Assembly: GCA_951406725.2 (NCBI GenBank)
Contig: OX597826.1
Span: forward strand, 15,376,001 to 15,440,000
Source of the DNA: Octopus vulgaris
Taxonomy: Eukaryota
Length of the DNA: 64,000 bases
Direction: 5' to 3'
The first letter of the stretch is position 1; every line of letters starts with the position of its first letter. Below are positions 2,311-54,320 of this stretch, in pieces. The notes beneath the pieces are model-generated. The model worked only from the letters and a program-made list of their open reading frames with translations. It searched no databases and was not told the DNA's origin. A program made the position numbers and the translations under genes.

Positions 2311-2904
2311 GAATTTTACATCGAGGAGATGGCGTTTAAAAATCGAATAATTTTCTGGAGAATCATGTGTATTAGGAAGTGGAGTTGGGGCGTTTAGATA
2401 GAGAGTAATTAGCGGAGAAAAGAGATTTCAGGATTAAGGTTAATAATGAGGCTAGTGATAGTAGTAGAAGTTGAAGGTGGGAGGAGTGAATGATGGCCTT
2501 TGTGATAGTTTGTACGAAAACTATAGAGTGAAATGTTGAGATAGTGAAAAGGGATTGTTATTATTTGAGGGAAATGCGTTGACTGATTCAGTAGCTATGG
2601 TGGACGAAAAGGTGGTCAAAAGTAATTGTTAGTGGGAAAAAGGAATTGGGTTGGCAATGGAAGAGGTGTTATTGTAAAGAGATGGGTTTGAGATTGAATA
2701 AAGTGTTGTAGGGCGGGGTAAATGTAAATTGGTTAGTTTTCAAAGACTCAAGCCATCATCCCACAATCCTACCTACGCGACAACAAATACTAGCTTCAGT
2801 ACCAGCTCTCAAAGCAATGCATATACAAATTTCAATATAGGTTCTCCCCTCACTAACAAGAAACCAGCGGAGCTCATCCTCAGTAATAATAAACCCCAAC
2901 TACG

Positions 2905-3230
2905 AGCAGGTAGGGAAACTTGCAACTGCCGCGTATCTCGATTATGCCCTCTTGAAGGCACCTGGCTACGCAAAAATGTGATCTACAAGTGCCGTGTTAT
3001 AACACCACGTTTCCCCCAAGCACCATAAATTTCAAGCGCACCTACTGTGCACACATGAACTCTTTCATTAATCCAAATTCTAAACTATCGACCTCCTTAG
3101 CAACGTATATACACAACCTCAGATCGCAAAATAATCCATATGCCCTATTCTGGTCCATAGTAAGTGAAGCTCCCCATACAATGCAATAACGGTTAGTGTC
3201 AGTTATCTATAGGAATCATTAACCCTTCGC
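2905..3230 (+). pseudogene. Frameshifted Penelope-type GIY-YIG endonuclease fragment
   Basis: TCNCRVSRLCPLEG...NVIYKCRV, then in another frame FKRTYCAHMNSFINPNSKLSTSLATYIHNLR..LFWSIV. Homologous to the ORF at 23621-24235. Confidence 0.8.
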
Positions 3231-3806: not shown

Positions 3807-4154
3807 TGTATGTATGTCTGTATCGATGTGTGTGCATTTGTGTGTGTAATAGAGAATTTGTTTTTTGGTTTGAAAATGCATCTGTAGTCGTTTATATGTT
3901 TAATAATGGGTTTATTCAAATAGCAAACTGGTACCCACATTGTTTTGGTTATGAATGGTACAAATGAATAACTAAAGGGCTTAGGAGAATTTAACGTTAC
4001 TAAGCAAAAATCGGGAAAGAACATTAAATCAGATGTTCAAATGTTCACAGAAATGACAATGAGTTTCACATGGCTAGATAGTAATATCAATGTAAACTTT
4101 CGGTGGAGATCATAGCAAATGTATATTATTGAAAGTTCAATCACGTTGAATTTT

Positions 4155-8617: not shown

Positions 8618-9357
8618 CTAGTTTTTAACTTCGTTTGGCCTTCTGGTTTTCCTATGGCTTGCTGCAACTGAAGCAGCTTTTAAAACACTTTCATCACTAT
8701 TACTTACATAGGAGTCTATATATACTCTAGCTAAATCCATGCAGTCTTCTGCTGCTATTAACCCTCTTCCAATTTCCTTTCTAGGTAAGTATAGTTTTGC
8801 TACTCCTTCTCTAGGGTGGAAACCTCCATTCAAAATGAATTCCTGCTCTGTAGTCTTCAGATTCTTACAAAGTAGCATGGTCAAGTGGGATACATGTTCC
8901 CTTCTAAACCATACAATGGGATGAGCCAGTCTAACAACATTAACATCAAACGAGGCATCTTTCCGGTGGCTCCCTCTCTTTTGCATGTTACTGATCCAAT
9001 TCTCAAACGACCTGAGTAACACCAGGTATAGGTTCAAAATGTATAATATTATAGTAAATAGTCTTCTCTTCTTTTTTTCATTCAGCTCTTTGGTTAAACT
9101 TTTCCCTGCCATCATTTCATCTGCATTTACACCCATATCTTTCGCGGCATATTGCAGCAGGTCTTCATCACTATTAATCAAATACTCAGCAAGCGTTCTC
9201 CTTTCGCTCATTATACAACGGTCTATACTAATTAGCCCTCTGCTACCATTCATTCTTTTCATATACAGTCTGTTTATGTTCGGTTTAGGATGTAGCGCTC
9301 TATGCAGCGTTCTCAACTTTCTCGTCCTTCTATCCAGTGTTGATATTTCCTGACCCT
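8618..9357 (-). pseudogene. R4/Dong-type non-LTR retrotransposon RT-thumb fragments
   Basis: LDRRTRKLRTLHRALHPKPNINRLYMKRMNGSRGLISI, plus a second copy of the motif FHPREGVAKLYLPRKEIGRGLIAAED. Abuts (TAA)n. Confidence 0.8.
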
Positions 9358-9365
9358 CATTATTA

Positions 9366-9440
<75 letters not shown>

Positions 9441-9477
9441 GTGTTGTTGTTATCGTTGTTGTTGTTGTTGTTCAACA

Positions 9478-9865
9478 ATTGGTAGTTTCAGGCAAATTTC
9501 TACTGCATCACCTGCTACACTTCCGTGTTTCTGGAGTGTGTGCAACATTGTGTGTTCTTCTCTGCTGTATGGAGTGTGAAAACTCCTCCTGGTATTGTAT
9601 TGTGTGAATTTCTCTTCGCTTGAGGTGTGGTACCTATTTTGGTGTATCAATCTTTGTATTCTGTATTGAGTGTGCAATTCGCTGGTTAACCGGATTGTTG
9701 GTGGAAGTTTATTTTTTTGGATAATTTCTTTATACATCGTGTCTTGTGTTTGTGGGTTTTGCTTGGGTTGTATAATGTTGTATATTTGAATTGTTAGTCA
9801 CTTGTGTAGGATGTGGGCTCTTCCAAGGAGGGCTAATTTTTGGATAGTGCGTACTGTTGTAGATA
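9478..9865 (-). mobile_element. 3' end of R4/Dong-type LINE
   Basis: Minus strand encodes IQKLALLGRAHILHK (ORF terminus) followed by a 3' UTR. A related 3' UTR occurs at ~41110-41300. Confidence 0.65.
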
Positions 9866-23404: not shown

Positions 23405-23620
23405 CTTACATACATATATATATATATATGTATATATATATGTGTGTGTGTCAGTATAAGGTGTGTTATAAGCATTTATAGAACACGTATCCTATGGAAA
23501 CTCAACAAACAATTAAAGATGGAGAAGGGAAGGTGTTAAAAGTTTTTAAAAAATTTTAATCCATGCATACGATCGTTTCGAACGGTAATATTAACATGTA
23601 AAATTCATGGAAAAAAAAAG

Positions 23621-24235
23621 AAATTCATTTTCTCTAGTAATAATTTTGGAGTAGGTTATTCTGCCACTAATAGTGTAGGTAACATTATTTCTTCTTTTAA
23701 CAAATTTAAACTGAATAAATTTAATAAAAATAAATTATATAATAATACCAATAATAAAAAAGATAATACACTAATTAACTGTACATGTAGAGATAAAACT
23801 AAATGCAAATTAAATAATAAATGTGATATTAACGATGTAGTGTATAAATGTATAGTTACATTACATGATGAGAATAATAATAATAATAATAATAACTCAA
23901 ACACGATATATATAGGGTTCACTTCCTCTAAAATGAAATTAAGAATCGCACAGCATATGCATTCATTTAAAAATAAAAACTTAATTAACTCCACTGGATT
24001 TAGCAAGTACATTTGGGGACTTAAATCCCAAAATATTAATTATAATTTATCTTGGGAAATAATTAGTAAGGCTAAATCATATAGTATAGGAGGGAATTTT
24101 TGTTATTTATGTTCAAATGAGTTTAAGGAAATTTTATTTTATAAGCATGATAATTTAGTGAATACCTGGGATGAGCACAAAATAAAATGCAGACACAAGT
24201 TACTTTACTTATATAATAAATTTTTTGATAAATAA
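23621..24235 (+). pseudogene. Penelope-like element ORF C-terminus: RT thumb end, Cys linker and GIY-YIG endonuclease (5'-truncated)
   Basis: Open frame reading KFIFSSNNFGVGYSATNSVGNIISSFN...NCTCRDKTKCKLNNKCDINDVVYKC...IYIGFTS..KLRIAQHMHSF..STGFSKYIW...CYLCSNE...KCRH. This is the typical Penelope-like endonuclease layout. It extends the track ORF 23840-24235 upstream. Confidence 0.88.
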
Positions 24236-26589
24236 TGAATATTTCTTAGCCTTAATTAGCTCCTCATTTGTTGTTTTATGTAATAGTATTCTAAATATAG
24301 CAGGTGATTTGTAATTTATTTTAGTTATTTAGGTTCTGTTTTTAATTATAGTTAGATTATATATAGTTGTTTATTTTATTACTAAATATATTTTTAATAA
24401 ATATTTAATGGTTTATTGAATTTAGAGTCTGGTAAGTTACAATCTTATTTATCTTATAATAAAGTTAAGTTTATATATTTTGTTATACTTCTGTTATAAT
24501 TTCGTTAAATTATAATTTTGTTATATTAATCTATTTGTATGTAATTTCTTTATATTTGAAATAGATTTATTTAGTTGTTTATTTAATCTACTTTATTTAA
24601 TATAGAAGTATAGATTAGTAGATTAATTATTTAGATTAAACTTAATGTTTACCTCTATTTTTGTATTGTAGTATGAATATAGACATTTATATACGTATTT
24701 ATTATATGATATATGTGGTTGTGTGTGTATGTATATATGTGTATATTTTGATGTGCGTGTATATATATGTATATACATTTATTTATGTGAGTGGATGTGT
24801 GTATATAGGTGTATGTGTATATATTGAGCATTGTATGTGTGTACATGTATGTATGTGTGTGCATATGTGTATGTGTGTATGTGTGTGTATATATGTGTGT
24901 ATATATGTATATGTATGTGTGTATGTATGTGTATATGTATATGTATGTATATGTATATATATGTATATATATATGTATATATATATGTATATGTATGTAT
25001 ATTTTTATATATTTATGTATACGTATGTATAGTTATACTGCAAATTTTGATAAGTATTCTATTGATTTGGTTATGATCACTAATTTTAGCCTATAACTAT
25101 AAGAGCATGGGGAAAGACTTTACAGTATAATGAGGGGTTACTATATAATTTTTTTTTTATATATTTATTAATCATATAAGAATTTTAGAATATATTTAAT
25201 AATTATTGGTTTTTAATCATTTAAATTATTTAATTTATTTTGTATTAAGTATTATTTATCATAGTTATTTTATTAATAAATATTATATTATAGAGAGATT
25301 TTATTCTTTATTTGTGACTTCATTCTATTTACACTGATAAACCATTAATGTTCGCATTCACAATCTCATTGATAAAGCGTATGTTCCTCACGCTTAATGA
25401 ATTCTTCAACAATTTATTCTTTTTTTGCTAATAATGTAATTCCACGAGTATTCTTATAAACGCTGTAAAGACGTTTTCCGATTCAAAATTTTAGTTCATT
25501 ACTAAACCTCGCTAAGATAAGTTTTTATTTATATTTAAGATCTTCAAATTGTAAATTTTAATATTGTATAAGTCTTTGGTGTAATAATATTTTCCTTATG
25601 TAAATATCGTTGTTTATGTAATGATCTAATTATCGTAATTTTTTATATTATTAGATATTAAATTTAAGTTTATTCGTAAGATACTACTTAGCGATATATT
25701 TGTTGTTTGATAGCAAGTATACGAGGTGTATAAAGTTAGGCTTTTGTATATACATGTTTTAATAGTATTAATTGTAGTTTTAAATTTCTTATAATTAAAT
25801 TAGATAAACTTTGATAAACTTAGATATGTTTCGACTAAAGATTGGTCCAGGCCATGTCTAATTTAATAGCATAACTTAGTTATTGTTTTTTTAAATTGAT
25901 ATTCGCAAGTTATTCCCATTGATAATTATATTTATAGTATTTATAGTATTTATTCGATACTATATTACTACGAATTGATTATTTCTATAAGTATTTTACA
26001 TAACATTTCCGAAAGTTCGTTTAAGTTTGTTTATTTGTATTTTGAAATTAGCTATTTCATCTTTAAATATGAAAAGTTAATTTATTAGGTTTTTATTATA
26101 TGTGCATATATATTTATTTATAGAGATTATTTTAGATCTTAATTATAATATTTATATACATTTATATATTTTCATTGATAATTTATATATAATAGTCATT
26201 TTTAAATATATATGTAATTAGATAAAGATTAATACCGATATTAGATTATTGGTGGTTTTCCTACTTTATAAATTAAAATTAATATTTAACATTATAGTCG
26301 ATTTTGATATAATCATAATTGTTAAGTTTTATGTTTCTAGTTTGATAATAGAGTTTATTATAAGTAAAATTATTATATTATTAATTCTCTAAAAGGGATA
26401 TAGACAGTAACTGCTCGATAACATAAGGGACTAAAGCCATCTGAATATGGCTAGGGACAGGGCAGGGTGGTGGGGGTGTTACTGTTGCATTTAGCCCCAG
26501 GCGAACATCGACGTCACCAGAAAGGCTCGACACCGTCACGGTGCCCTTAACCTGCAAAGGGAGGTAATTCCCCGATGAAACGGAAACCA

Positions 26590-26635
26590 CACACGGACCA
26601 TGGTTTCAAGGTGTATTGCCTATCATCGGCGTGTG
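26590..26635 (-). ncRNA. Type I hammerhead ribozyme, unit 1 (U4C core variant)
   Basis: Minus strand reads CACACG-CCGAUGA-U-AGG-caauaca-CCU-U-GAAA-CCAUGG-UC^CGUGUG: 6-bp helix I, short helix II, palindromic helix III (ACCAUGGU), GUC cleavage triplet. Confidence 0.75.
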
Positions 26636-26949
26636 GTAGGCCTCCGCTTCCTCGACGAATTCTCACTCTGCAGGATTTTCTTATATAGATTTTCAAGCAA
26701 AATACATTTGCTGATTTCGAAAATCTGTTCGAAAGCAATAATAATTCTCTAAAAGGGATATAGACAGTAACTGCTCGATAACATAAGGGACTAAAGCCAT
26801 CTGAATATGGCTAGGGACAGGGCAGGGTGGTGGGGGTGTTACTGTTGCATTTAGCCCCAGGCGAACATCGACGTCACCAGAAAGACTCGACACCGTCACG
26901 GTGCCCTTAACCTGCAAAGGGAGGTAATTCCCCGATGAAACGGAAACCA

Positions 26950-26995
26950 CACACGGACCATGGTTTCAAGGTGTATTGCCTATCATCGGCGTGTG
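26950..26995 (-). ncRNA. Type I hammerhead ribozyme, unit 2
   Basis: Identical to 26590-26635, offset +360. Confidence 0.75.
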
Positions 26996-27309
26996 GTAGG
27001 CCTCCGCTTCCTCGACGAATTCTCACTCTGCAGGATTTTCTTATATAGATTTTCAAGCAAAATACATTTGCTGATTTCGAAAATCTGTTCGAAAGCAATA
27101 ATAATTCTCTAAAAGGGATATAGACAGTAACTGCTCGATAACATAAGGGACTAAAGCCATCTGAATATGGCTAGGGACAGGGCAGGGTGGTGGGGGTGTT
27201 ACTGTTGCATTTAGCCCCAGGCGAACATCGACGTCACCAGAAAGGCTCGACACCGTCACGGTGCCCTTAACCTGCAAAGGGAGGTAATTCCCCGATGAAA
27301 CGGAAACCA

Positions 27310-27355
27310 CACACGGACCATGGTTTCAAGGTGTATTGCCTATCATCGGCGTGTG
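27310..27355 (-). ncRNA. Type I hammerhead ribozyme, unit 3
   Basis: Identical to 26590-26635, offset +720. Confidence 0.75.
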
Positions 27356-27691
27356 GTAGGCCTCCGCTTCCTCGACGAATTCTCACTCTGCAGGATTTTC
27401 TTATATAGATTTTCAAGCAAAATAGGCAATACACCTTGAAACCATGGTCCGTGTGTGGTTTCCGTTTCATCGGGGAATTACCTCCCTTTGCAGGTTAAGG
27501 GCACCGTGACGGTGTCGAGCCTTTCTGGTGACGTCGATGTTCGCCTGGGGCTAAATGCAACAGTAACACCCCCACCACCCTGCCCTGTCCCTAGCCATAT
27601 TCAGATGGCTTTAGTCCCTTATGTTATTATATTATTTATATCTTAAAAATATTGTTTAAATATTTCTGATTATTTTTTAGATATTTCAATT

Positions 27692-27780
27692 AACCTGAAG
27701 ATTGACTGTAACCATAACTCGAATTATTAATTGAATTTAAATTATTGTTATTCGAATTGTACAGCCATGAAACGATCGTA
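27692..27780 (+). ncRNA. Hammerhead motif with long helix II (Penelope pseudo-LTR)
   Basis: AAC-CUGAAGA-uugacugua...uacagccau-GAAAC-GAUC^GU. The core is canonical but helix I is weak. Confidence 0.6.
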
Positions 27781-27907
27781 GTGTTTTACTCTTATTAAAC
27801 TTTTAATACTTTTGATATATATTTAAAATAATATAAATTAAATTAATTTTATGTAGTGGCTTATGTTTTTCATTGTTTGATTTGCTTAATAGTGGTTTTA
27901 TCTCTAA

Positions 27908-27938
<31 letters not shown>

Positions 27939-28099
27939 GGCGCAGAAGTGACTGCGTGGTAAGAAGATTACTTCCCAACCACATGGCTCTTGGTTCAGTC
28001 CCACTGCTTAGTACCTTCGGCATGTGTCAGCTAGTATAGCCTCAGGCCGACAAAGGCTTTGTGAGTGGATTTGGTAGATGCAAACTGAAAGAAGTTCGT

Positions 28100-28164
<65 letters not shown>

Positions 28165-28375
28165 TGGGGATGTTTGTGTGTCTGTGATTGTCCGCCCTCT
28201 ATCACTTGACAACCGATGTTGGTGTGTTTACGTCCCCGTAACCTAGCTGTCTGGCCAAAGAAACTAATAGAATAAGTACTAGGCTTATAAAGAATAAGTC
28301 CTGGGGTCAATGTGCTCCACTGAAGGCGATGCCCCAGCATGGCCGCAGTCAAATGGCTAAAACAAGTAAAAGAAT
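27939..28375 (+). mobile_element. tRNA-derived SINE family B with internal (TA/TG)n, full length
   Basis: GGCGCAGAAGTGACTGCGTGGTAAG..GGTTCAGTCCCACT head and CAGCATGGCCGCAGTCAAATG..AAACAAGTAAAAGA tail. Confidence 0.85.
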
Positions 28376-32664: not shown

Positions 32665-33600
32665 CGCAACTTTTTAAGAGGCTGGTCCAAACAGCTTTCA
32701 TTAAATTAGATACCGACACTACCATCAAGGAGCTCGAGCCACGGGAAAGCTATAAATAACTGAGGATAAACGAAGGAGATTGTATACAACACGCTATTAG
32801 GAAGGAAAATGAATAAGAAAGACTCATACTTAAAACTAAACTCAGCTCCAAAAATCACATCGAAGTCATTAACACCCTGGGACTTCTAGTTATCCAATAT
32901 AACTTCAACATCATTGACTGAAATCTTACAGAACTGCAACGCCTGGTGTAGAATAGAAGAAAGCTACTAAATCTAAGAACATGCACCACCCAAAAGCAGA
33001 CATTGATCATCTTTACCTAGAAGTAATGGGGGAAGAGGAATGATGAAGGGAGAACTCTGCTAAAAGACCTCAACAATAGCAATGAACAAGTATCAGAGCT
33101 TATAATGTGTGGAACGAGACCCGCTGAGACCTATGACAGCAAACAGCTATCCGCTCCCAGAATCTACGAGAAGAAACGAGACTGAGCGTTCTGAGAATTA
33201 AAACAACAGCAATAATAATAATATTAATAATAGACGGGACATAATTATAGTTAAGGAAAAGCGAAGTTGCTTACTAATCGACCCATCATGGCCTTTTGTT
33301 TCCAGAATCGTAAAAAAAGAGGGTGAAAAACAAAAACAATACAATCTCCTAAAATTTGAAATGGGAAGAATTTGGAACATGAGAACACCAAAGGTCGTGC
33401 CTATAATAATTGGTGCGTTGAGATTTGTAAGCAAATATACAGACAGATGGATAAAAGAGACAGAAATAGAATGCCCGGTAGAACTCTTACAGAGTTTGTC
33501 TGTTAGGGACAGCAAATAGTATATGGATGGTTTTCAGCATTTGAAAGACAGCTGAAATTTGTGGATACCTATGGTTACAAGTAGTAACCAGCTACCCAAT
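32665..33600 (+). pseudogene. R4/Dong-type LINE RT and endonuclease fragments
   Basis: IKELEPRESYK*LRINEG; MHHPKADIDHLYL; NRRDIIIVKEKRSCLLIDPSWP; KQYNLLKFEMGRIWNMRTPKVVPIIIGAL. Starts after (AAT)n. Confidence 0.8.
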
Positions 33601-53269: not shown

Positions 53270-54320
53270 TCGAGACACATCCAGCGTCCTAGGGCGAGTG
53301 AAGGATAAGAGATGTTACAGTATGACTGAAAGTTTGGGGAGGTTAAGTGGCAGGGGTAGTAGCGAAATATCTTAATGCAATACAACACAGACGATTAAAT
53401 TGATAGGATTTTTTTAAAGCTGTGGACAGTACTTGACAGCACAATCTTTTGGATTTCCCTTCCCATATTATCTAGACGTTTTTCACATCCCTTTCTTATC
53501 ATGCCTAAAACACCCACAATAACAGGCACAATTCTTGCTTTAAGATGCCACATTATTTGTATTTCAATTTCCAGGTCCTTATATTTACTTAATTCGTGAA
53601 ATTCCTTTACAGATACATTTTTATCAGTGAGAACACTTACGTCTAATAATCTACAAGTATTTTCTTCTCAGTGCTAAATGACAATGTCTGGTAGATTATC
53701 TGGATCATTCTGTCGGTGTTGAATGAAAATTCTCAGACGAGAGTGACATTTTTACATTCAACGACTAGCTCCGGGTGATGTTCATACCAGTAAGCATAAG
53801 TTTTGATTTTGTAGTGTTTACATATTTTCCAATGTAAATACCGCTCTACCCTATAGTGGTGACTTTTCTATTCGTTTGGCTTCAGGACAGGACATCCCGA
53901 GATGAGATGGCCTACTGTTTCGTCAAATGTGACGCAGTATCTGCATTTAAGGTCAGAACCGTTTTGAAGAACGTTAGCCTGGTACATTTTGGTTAGCAAA
54001 TGTGCGCCAATAGGAAACCTTCGGTCTCTGCTTTCAGTCCCGAGCATCTCAGTCACTGATGGTTTGTTGCTAGGTGTACGTCAGCATTTCTGCTTCGAAG
54101 CATATACTGTCCGCACAGAGGCTTCTGGCTCCAGCGATCCTTAATTTGCTTCTGCCCGTTCTTTTTTGCAGTCTGATTGATCCGTTTTTCTTGTTTGATG
54201 GCAGAGGTTTCGTTTTCTTGCAGAGTTTTCTTGAGAATTTGCAAGCTTCTTTGACAATAGAATGTGATTTTTTTCTCCTTTCGTGTTTGCACAGAAGTCA
54301 CAGCATCGAAATGTATGATA
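53270..54320 (-). pseudogene. R4/Dong-type LINE C-terminus (CCHC knuckle and endonuclease)
   Basis: WSQKPLCGQY; KCRYCVTFDETVGHLISGCPVL; PDIVI..TCRLLDVSV; KYKDLEIEIQIMWHLKARIVPVIVG. Confidence 0.85.

Follow-up and report, generated by a model that had tools for sequence, protein, structure and literature searches.

The window examined here, 64,000 nucleotides of Octopus vulgaris DNA (assembly GCA_951406725.2, contig OX597826.1, forward-strand positions 15,376,001 to 15,440,000), carries at positions 26382-27627 a repeated unit of 360 bp bearing a hammerhead ribozyme, and the question raised by this locus is how such a short sequence is copied and inserted, and from which RNA template. An earlier, sequence-only reading had taken the locus for a retrozyme, reverse transcribed from an arbitrary point on a circular RNA that was traversed more than three times. 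The present analysis suggests that the element is probably a non-autonomous, non-coding retrozyme of the kind that lacks long terminal repeats (non-LTR), mobilised in trans by the reverse transcriptase (RT)/GIY-YIG protein of a Penelope-like element (PLE). For mobilisation of the PLE type as such, our confidence is high.

Anatomy of the insertion

Unit positions are numbered along the + strand, with 26382 as position 1. According to Tandem Repeats Finder the period is 360 bp, with 2.9 copies and 99% matches at 26382-27424, and the tandem copies differ by a single nucleotide polymorphism at 26885 (+ strand), private to unit 2; to this extent the sequence-only reading is confirmed. The last 206 bp (27422-27627), which had been counted into the same tandem, are instead an inverted copy of 26418-26623 with 100% identity. 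The locus is composed of a long arm of 2.9 tandem units (26382-27424; the + strand is the complementary DNA (cDNA) strand and ribozyme sense is minus) and an inverted short arm (27422-27627, + strand) running from unit position 242 to 37, the two being joined head-to-head with a 3-nt overlap. As the longest arm measures 2.9 units, the claim of more than three laps is not borne out. The unit is GC-rich in relation to its flanks only (47% against 17-26%), and is non-coding as had been supposed: no ATG-started open reading frame (ORF) of more than 50 amino acids (aa) is present on either strand of the circularised unit.

The search of the genome (2.8 Gb, 227 contigs) with the unit yielded 205 matches in the best 40 of 758 candidates, those listed having 97-100% identity; these 40 loci, the window locus included, are the best-scoring candidates, a sample biased to long intact arrays, and are spread over 16 contigs. 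Searching the whole genome for an exact 34-nt ribozyme pattern yields 1,324 matches, as compared to none for a control pattern. The first 100 ribozyme matches correspond by hand count to 34 loci, from which about 450 loci are extrapolated for the whole genome. Across the 40 loci, 138 substitutions in 59,931 bases amount to 0.23% divergence from the consensus. The family is dispersed, very young and recently active, in agreement with the earlier proposal.

A head-to-head pair of arrays, with the 3' ends of the RNA facing outward, makes up 33 of the 40 loci. The outer ends have fixed places in the unit, namely position 353 or position 37, which are separated by 44 nt. The two kinds of end are coupled: 29 of the 33 two-armed loci combine 353 with 37, one has two 353-type ends and three have a truncated end, so that unlike starts are paired in 29 of the 30 loci with both ends classed (p=3e-8 versus independent choice). 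The inner ends, in contrast, are uniform round the unit (Rayleigh p ~0.45), and the junctions mostly overlap by 0-10 nt. Either arm type may be the longer and most junctions are asymmetric; arm length reaches 8.2 units in the 40 loci, and 9 in the position-ordered listing of ribozyme matches. In that listing, where a ribozyme is required in each arm, both orientations occur in 16 of 34 loci, all 16 in the same order. The dispersed multimers predicted by the sequence-only reading are thus present, with random inner ends; the permuted or arbitrary starts are not, since the outer ends lie at the two fixed positions in 29 of 33 two-armed loci. Twin priming of the L1 type was also considered and rejected, as the inner ends of the 353-arms do not lie near position 37.

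At the window locus the outer end of the long arm lies 3-8 nt inside the family start site at 353, while that of the short arm coincides with the second start at 37. The 44-nt segment between the fixed starts (positions 353 to 36), found on the minus strand at 26734-26777 and again at 27094-27137, is the part of the unit most conserved against sister family B, described below. The combination of two fixed starts and an inverted arm is the 'tail plus inverted copy' signature of PLEs. Hallmarks of PLEs are an inverted 5'-truncated copy and a tail of 30-40 bp at one end (PMC8557442, PMC3846280); the anole PLE protein is likewise described as extending both nicked strands from two internal RNA starts that bound the tail (PMC11167929).

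The choice of target is evident from the flanks, as 64 of 72 fixed ends adjoin (AT)>=4. The window locus belongs to the minority that lies outside (TA)n, and the duplicated target can be read there as 13 nt on the + strand, the left copy at 26370-26382 (1 nt also fits the element) and the right copy at 27624-27636 (4 nt also fit the element); the duplication is 15 nt at L062, also outside (TA)n. An empty site matching the 13-nt duplication occurs in contigs of two of the four public runs compared. The sequence hosting the insertion is repetitive in turn (at least 40 copies of 95-98% identity), and the empty-site contigs therefore define the target and were rejected as a record of allelic polymorphism.

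Sister family B and related subfamilies

Family B has a 357-nt non-coding unit, co-linear with the 360-bp unit (family A) and 59% identical to it. It is represented by 2,620 candidates with ~90% identity to the query and is older than the 360-bp family. Its hammerhead keeps stem I, has a canonical core and carries another 6-nt palindrome in stem III. Family B copies (L145-L174; L116:5580-5820) have an outer end at the 353-equivalent site and occur in tandem and inverted forms. Other subfamilies of 75-97% identity were seen at L184, L185, L066:7362-7501 and L050:2696-2934 and in some contigs of public runs; some contigs related to them reach a depth of 150-220 in run X20. Core positions 3 and 4 are both changed in all three units of L185, on both arms.

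The hammerhead ribozyme

The sequence-only reading had assigned one type I hammerhead to each unit on the minus strand, with a cut between 26596 and 26595, and this assignment holds, although it overlooked both the U4C change in the core and the U.U pair. Copy 1 (26586-26638) has a stem I of 6 bp and the core CCGAUGA (26629-26623), in which position 4 is C and not U. Its stem II of 3 bp is closed by U.U (10.1/11.1) and followed by GAAA, and its palindromic stem III (26604-26597) precedes the GUC at which cleavage is predicted. Copies 2 and 3 lie at 26946-26998 and 27306-27358, also on the minus strand, and the inverted arm holds a 5'-truncated hammerhead (27422-27459, + strand), in which most of the core is absent and the cleavage triplet ends at 27449.

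A structure-aware descriptor finds the motif in the unit and in 0 of 5000 dinucleotide shuffles of it. RNAfold does not return the active fold for the isolated motif (z -0.7 to -2.2). The best sign of selection on the motif is the conservation of stem I, core and palindromic stem III in family B. The palindromic stem III fits a dimeric fold of the kind described for animal hammerheads in PMC4209133. The ribozyme probably cleaves in vivo.

The circular monomer is predicted to fold with a minimum free energy of -116 kcal/mol (z=-4.9 versus 60 shuffles), 67% of its bases being paired. The unit and family B share 19 compensatory pairs, as compared to a shuffle mean of 10.5 and a maximum of 17, which may be taken as weak support for a conserved fold. 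A tRNA-like head, as in a tRNA-derived short interspersed element (SINE), was not found in the unit by ARAGORN (0 genes) or Rfam (no match). A TATA-like stretch is present on the minus strand at ~26681-26690 (unit ~300-309). It lies upstream of the ribozyme core by ~50 nt, has an equivalent in family B and is a possible internal promoter.

PLEs of the genome as candidate helpers

The genome contains three PLE families with intact ORFs of 775, 781 and 753 aa, labelled Neptune-type on account of the cysteine linker that precedes their GIY-YIG domain. The 775-aa family has at least 76 copies identical over 573 aa, and the named homologues of its protein belong to bivalve molluscs or to symbiont-labelled records. 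Several PLE families of this genome look active. All three Neptune-type families display two 3' ends ~32-47 nt apart in (TA)n, and inverted pairs were seen for the 775- and 753-aa families. The hammerhead of the 775-aa family has U4C and U.U, as in the 360-bp unit, and those of the Hydra-type families of 840 and 806 aa have a stem III with a 6-nt palindrome, in which they resemble A and B.

Some further features of these families were recorded. The hammerhead of the 775-aa family is intact (L138 1960-2020 and 6230-6290); the 781- and 753-aa families (3' regions of L103 and L175) have seemingly decayed hammerhead remnants, yet many intact copies. In the 806-aa family a hammerhead with a long stem II lies upstream of the ORF (L182:560-670), and the arm ends differ by ~80 nt in the one pair seen. 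The three Neptune-type families, all of them young, also have an extra upstream ORF of ~370-480 aa that overlaps or abuts the RT-endonuclease ORF (L138:2149-3510, L103:768-2204, L175:4225-5364), for which no Pfam match was obtained in the two cases tested. Canonical PLEs are described as single-ORF elements in the papers compared.

No ORF with RT and GIY-YIG domains, as in an autonomous PLE, is present in the unit or contiguous with any of the 40 arrays; PLE protein remnants occur near five of the 40 loci and are not contiguous with the array. The unit is not confined to a single locus, an outcome that the sequence-only reading had named as refuting. The unit was compared with the ends of six PLE families (775, 781, 753, 840 and 806 aa, and the PLE that hosts the window locus) by blastn, by an nhmmer profile of A and B and by shuffled end alignments, and no significant similarity was found; the best, between B and the 753-aa family, was equalled by 14 of 500 shuffles, and this with one of the two window sizes used. 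In L116 a 46-nt match lies next to a PLE; it was considered as the tail of a helper and rejected, as it belongs to a separate family B insertion.

Template and mechanism of insertion

Altogether 158 cleavage sites are traversed by the arms. Of the 76 inner ends, one is found 5 nt or less from such a site, where 2.3 would be expected; among the two-armed loci, none of 66 inner ends falls there. As inner ends are not piled up there, cut linear RNA is not the template. Rare variants are uniform over both arms at the window locus (4/4), L063 (5/5), L067 (5/5) and L185 (3/3). The window variant at unit position 199 occurs in all four copies (+ strand 26580, 26940, 27300 and 27465), hence on both arms. 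Genome-wide it has 10 candidates, namely four in the window, three among the 16 units of L058 and three in older loci; a run of three is found at the window locus only, the longest in L058 being two. The older cases comprise two single units in older-subfamily loci and one old copy, so that the site can recur or may predate the family, which weakens a link between L058 and the window. Three consecutive position-199 units are without a linear source in this assembly, and the source may lie outside it. Contigs of 358-390 nt covering the unit, from four runs guessed to be RNA, were rejected as evidence of circles and of RNA strand or level, tandem DNA or RNA fitting them equally well.

These observations can be accommodated in the following scheme. 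The minus strand would be transcribed and cut slowly by its hammerheads, probably as a dimer, into 360-nt monomers, which would be ligated to circles, as family resemblance and the bottleneck pattern of variants suggest. A PLE protein may then nick both strands of a (TA)n target 13-15 nt apart, one 3'-OH priming cDNA at 353 and the other at 37, an asymmetric pair. Each RT would make 0.1-9 laps through the ribozyme sites, at times switching to a related RNA, and the two cDNAs would finally be joined head-to-head via 0-10 nt of microhomology.

Several points weigh against this scheme. Rfam does not detect the hammerhead in the unit at gathering or E-value thresholds; position 4 is C in 155 of 155 cores of the 40 loci, which leaves the core not fully canonical, and U4C is described as a natural variant weaker in vitro, which nonetheless supports viroid infectivity (PMC3088659). 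In L185 a single haplotype, in which C3 is changed, extends over both arms, and an active ribozyme was possibly not needed for copying there. In the anole PLE experiments of PMC11167929, ribozyme mutants still inserted in vitro, and no difference in start site was observed between the strands. Of the 10 loci with informative variants, three are uniform and seven mosaic; a single monomer circle does not account for the mosaic ones, nor for L058, where three haplotypes are mixed in a different order on each arm. The lack of similarity to the six PLE families and the bias of the 40 loci towards long intact arrays belong here as well.

The variants as a whole are fitted best by a mixed model, in which monomer bottlenecks are combined with switching or oligomeric templates. 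One arm of L068 takes on the haplotype of a sister subfamily over its final 42 nt (4045-4086), which points to template switching or conversion. An arm also turns into a divergent relative near its inner end at L056:3053-3288, as at L068, which suggests RT template switching. The circular origin claimed by the sequence-only reading is accordingly retained in part: the uniform variant at the locus and the absence of ends at the cleavage site agree with it, and the mosaic arrays elsewhere do not. A circular template is plausible, and a circle is rather favoured as the usual one, by a narrow preference. The complete picture, in which a viroid-like RNA circle, not derived from the pseudo-LTR of a resident PLE, is copied by an asymmetric PLE dimer with one start site per nicked strand, up to 9 laps, circle hopping and cDNAs meeting head-to-head, is offered tentatively. 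If it were true, the ~450 young insertions would document how PLEs integrate in vivo, the tail would reflect obligatory one-of-each pairing of starts, and retrozyme multimers would be rolling-circle products.

The alternative to be taken most seriously, itself no better than tentative, keeps PLE-driven insertion and replaces the circle by an uncut linear multimer with template jumps, the U4C ribozyme being slow or vestigial and circles unneeded. The seven mosaic loci speak for it, as both arms of L031, L038, L045, L065 and L068 fit one heteromultimer in the same or a shifted register, as do the late haplotype shift in L068 and the in vitro behaviour of the anole PLE, whose main substrate was uncut RNA (PMC11167929). 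Where a rare variant is uniform through an entire array and in both arms, however, a one-unit bottleneck followed by re-multimerisation is needed, and a linear source carrying the position-199 variant in three successive units was not found in this assembly, although a long master array could still supply one. The origin of the second arm could be sought in fold-back of the first cDNA, its fixed end then being due to endonuclease resolution instead of a second priming. Self-priming has been proposed for the palindromes of rotifer Penelope (PMC3846280) and endonuclease resolution for the tail (PMC8557442); the L045 junction is nearly symmetric with a mirrored variant, and both innermost units of L058 have one haplotype. 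This is nevertheless improbable, as most junctions are asymmetric, the longer arm is of either type, the variants of L031 and L038 are not mirrored across the junction, and two RT starts have been measured directly for a PLE in vitro (PMC11167929).

There is less room still for the unit being the pseudo-LTR of an autonomous PLE yet to be found, with the arrays as truncated by-products. PLE pseudo-LTRs do bear hammerheads and tails (PMC11167929, PMC4209133) and Xenopus retrozymes are similar to pseudo-LTRs (10.64898/2026.07.22.740005), and thousands of PLE candidates lie beyond those scored; but the arms reach 8-9 pure units, the PLE remnants near five of the 40 loci are never contiguous with the array, six PLE families are without homology, and sister B is likewise a non-coding unit, of 357 nt. 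Insertion of one plain tandem array, copied as rolling-circle cDNA from a random start, would explain the uniform inner ends, but is hardly tenable with outer ends at two fixed sites and two-armed insertions, by which its start point is refuted. Hardly any weight at all is left for satellite amplification in place or a fold-back artefact of long reads: chimeric reads can yield palindromes, yet the 40 loci lie on 16 contigs, their ends are fixed in place and not symmetric, a duplication of the target is present, and public contigs include the empty-site form. The preferred reading remains the PLE-mobilised retrozyme.

Relation to known elements

Non-LTR retrozymes with a PLE helper have already been proposed (PMC7229834, PMC7761336). 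A study of vertebrates (Li, Clavereau, Pollet 2026, 10.64898/2026.07.22.740005), with no mollusc in its available parts, argues from co-occurrence and pseudo-LTR similarity that retrozymes are non-autonomous PLE partners, and leaves the mechanism of mobilisation open. Co-occurrence with PLEs is common to both systems; the accessible text of that study gives no analysis of tails or inversions, whereas the present work adds the insertion anatomy and finds no pseudo-LTR homology in six families. The unit agrees with the metazoan non-LTR retrozymes (Cervera and de la Pena 2020, PMC7229834) in length (mussel units 350-390 bp), in being a non-coding tandem with one type I hammerhead per unit and GC below 50%, and in its stable fold, lack of an LTR, dispersed multimers and target-site duplication of more than 4 bp. 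It is unlike them in its fixed U4C core with U.U at 10.1/11.1, and two-armed palindromes, coupled fixed starts and (TA)n targeting are not described in the passages compared, in which the word 'inverted' does not occur.

Endonuclease-bearing PLEs (Poseidon PAc, PMC11167929; Neptune, Hydra and Naiad, PMC8557442; rotifer Penelope, PMC3846280) are alike in two internal RT starts, a truncated copy in inverted orientation, copies in tandem, a hammerhead, and targets that are AT-rich or (TA)n. The present unit differs from them in having no ORF, a tail of 44 nt as against 30-40, and arms that are multimers of a short unit. Chlamys elements such as MRC1 are also non-autonomous PLE passengers, often multicopy head-to-tail, but generally share 3' similarity with autonomous families and mostly have no canonical hammerhead (PMC8557442); the unit described here has a hammerhead, and no 3' similarity to the six PLE families compared was detected. 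A literature search that covered mainly the main text of open papers turned up no description of a cephalopod retrozyme or of palindromic retrozyme insertions with two starts. The element class is expected and the PLE link already in print; what is added is a variant ribozyme and an insertion footprint by which retrozyme mobilisation and PLE integration become open to direct test.

The enzyme that moves retrozymes and the circular template have until now been inferred from co-occurrence and pseudo-LTR similarity, and a second question is how tandem copies, inverted copies and tails arise in PLEs. A young family carrying the full PLE footprint bears on both, as this footprint ties retrozyme spread to a specific, testable PLE mechanism, on which the pairing of unlike starts in 29 of 30 loci is a new constraint. 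A short non-coding unit in a genome with dozens of identical PLE proteins offers a small substrate, exact starts and candidate enzymes, and genome writing is a further field in which an RNA of this kind, bearing a ribozyme and integrating into (TA)n in multimeric form, is of interest.

Host element and neighbouring features

The insertion lies within a 5'-truncated Hydra-type PLE (23540-27911, + strand), with an ORF remnant at 23540-24232 that includes a CxCX5C linker, a long AT-rich 3' region and an end at (TA)n. This PLE is the target and not a part of the retrozyme. It has a hammerhead-like motif of its own at ~27688-27787, with a long stem II and a palindromic stem III, and a relative of it (L180) has intact ORFs of 838-862 aa and a 3' region of 3.6 kb. 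A second, older Hydra-type remnant with a CxCX5C linker is found at 2702-3025 of the window. Interspersed repeat fragments between (TA)n runs at ~27940-28330 match many of the loci examined and are probably common SINE-like families. ORF fragments at 8621-9797 (- strand), 33202-33516 (+ strand) and 53398-53667 (- strand) resemble, by their motifs, remnants of non-LTR retrotransposons.

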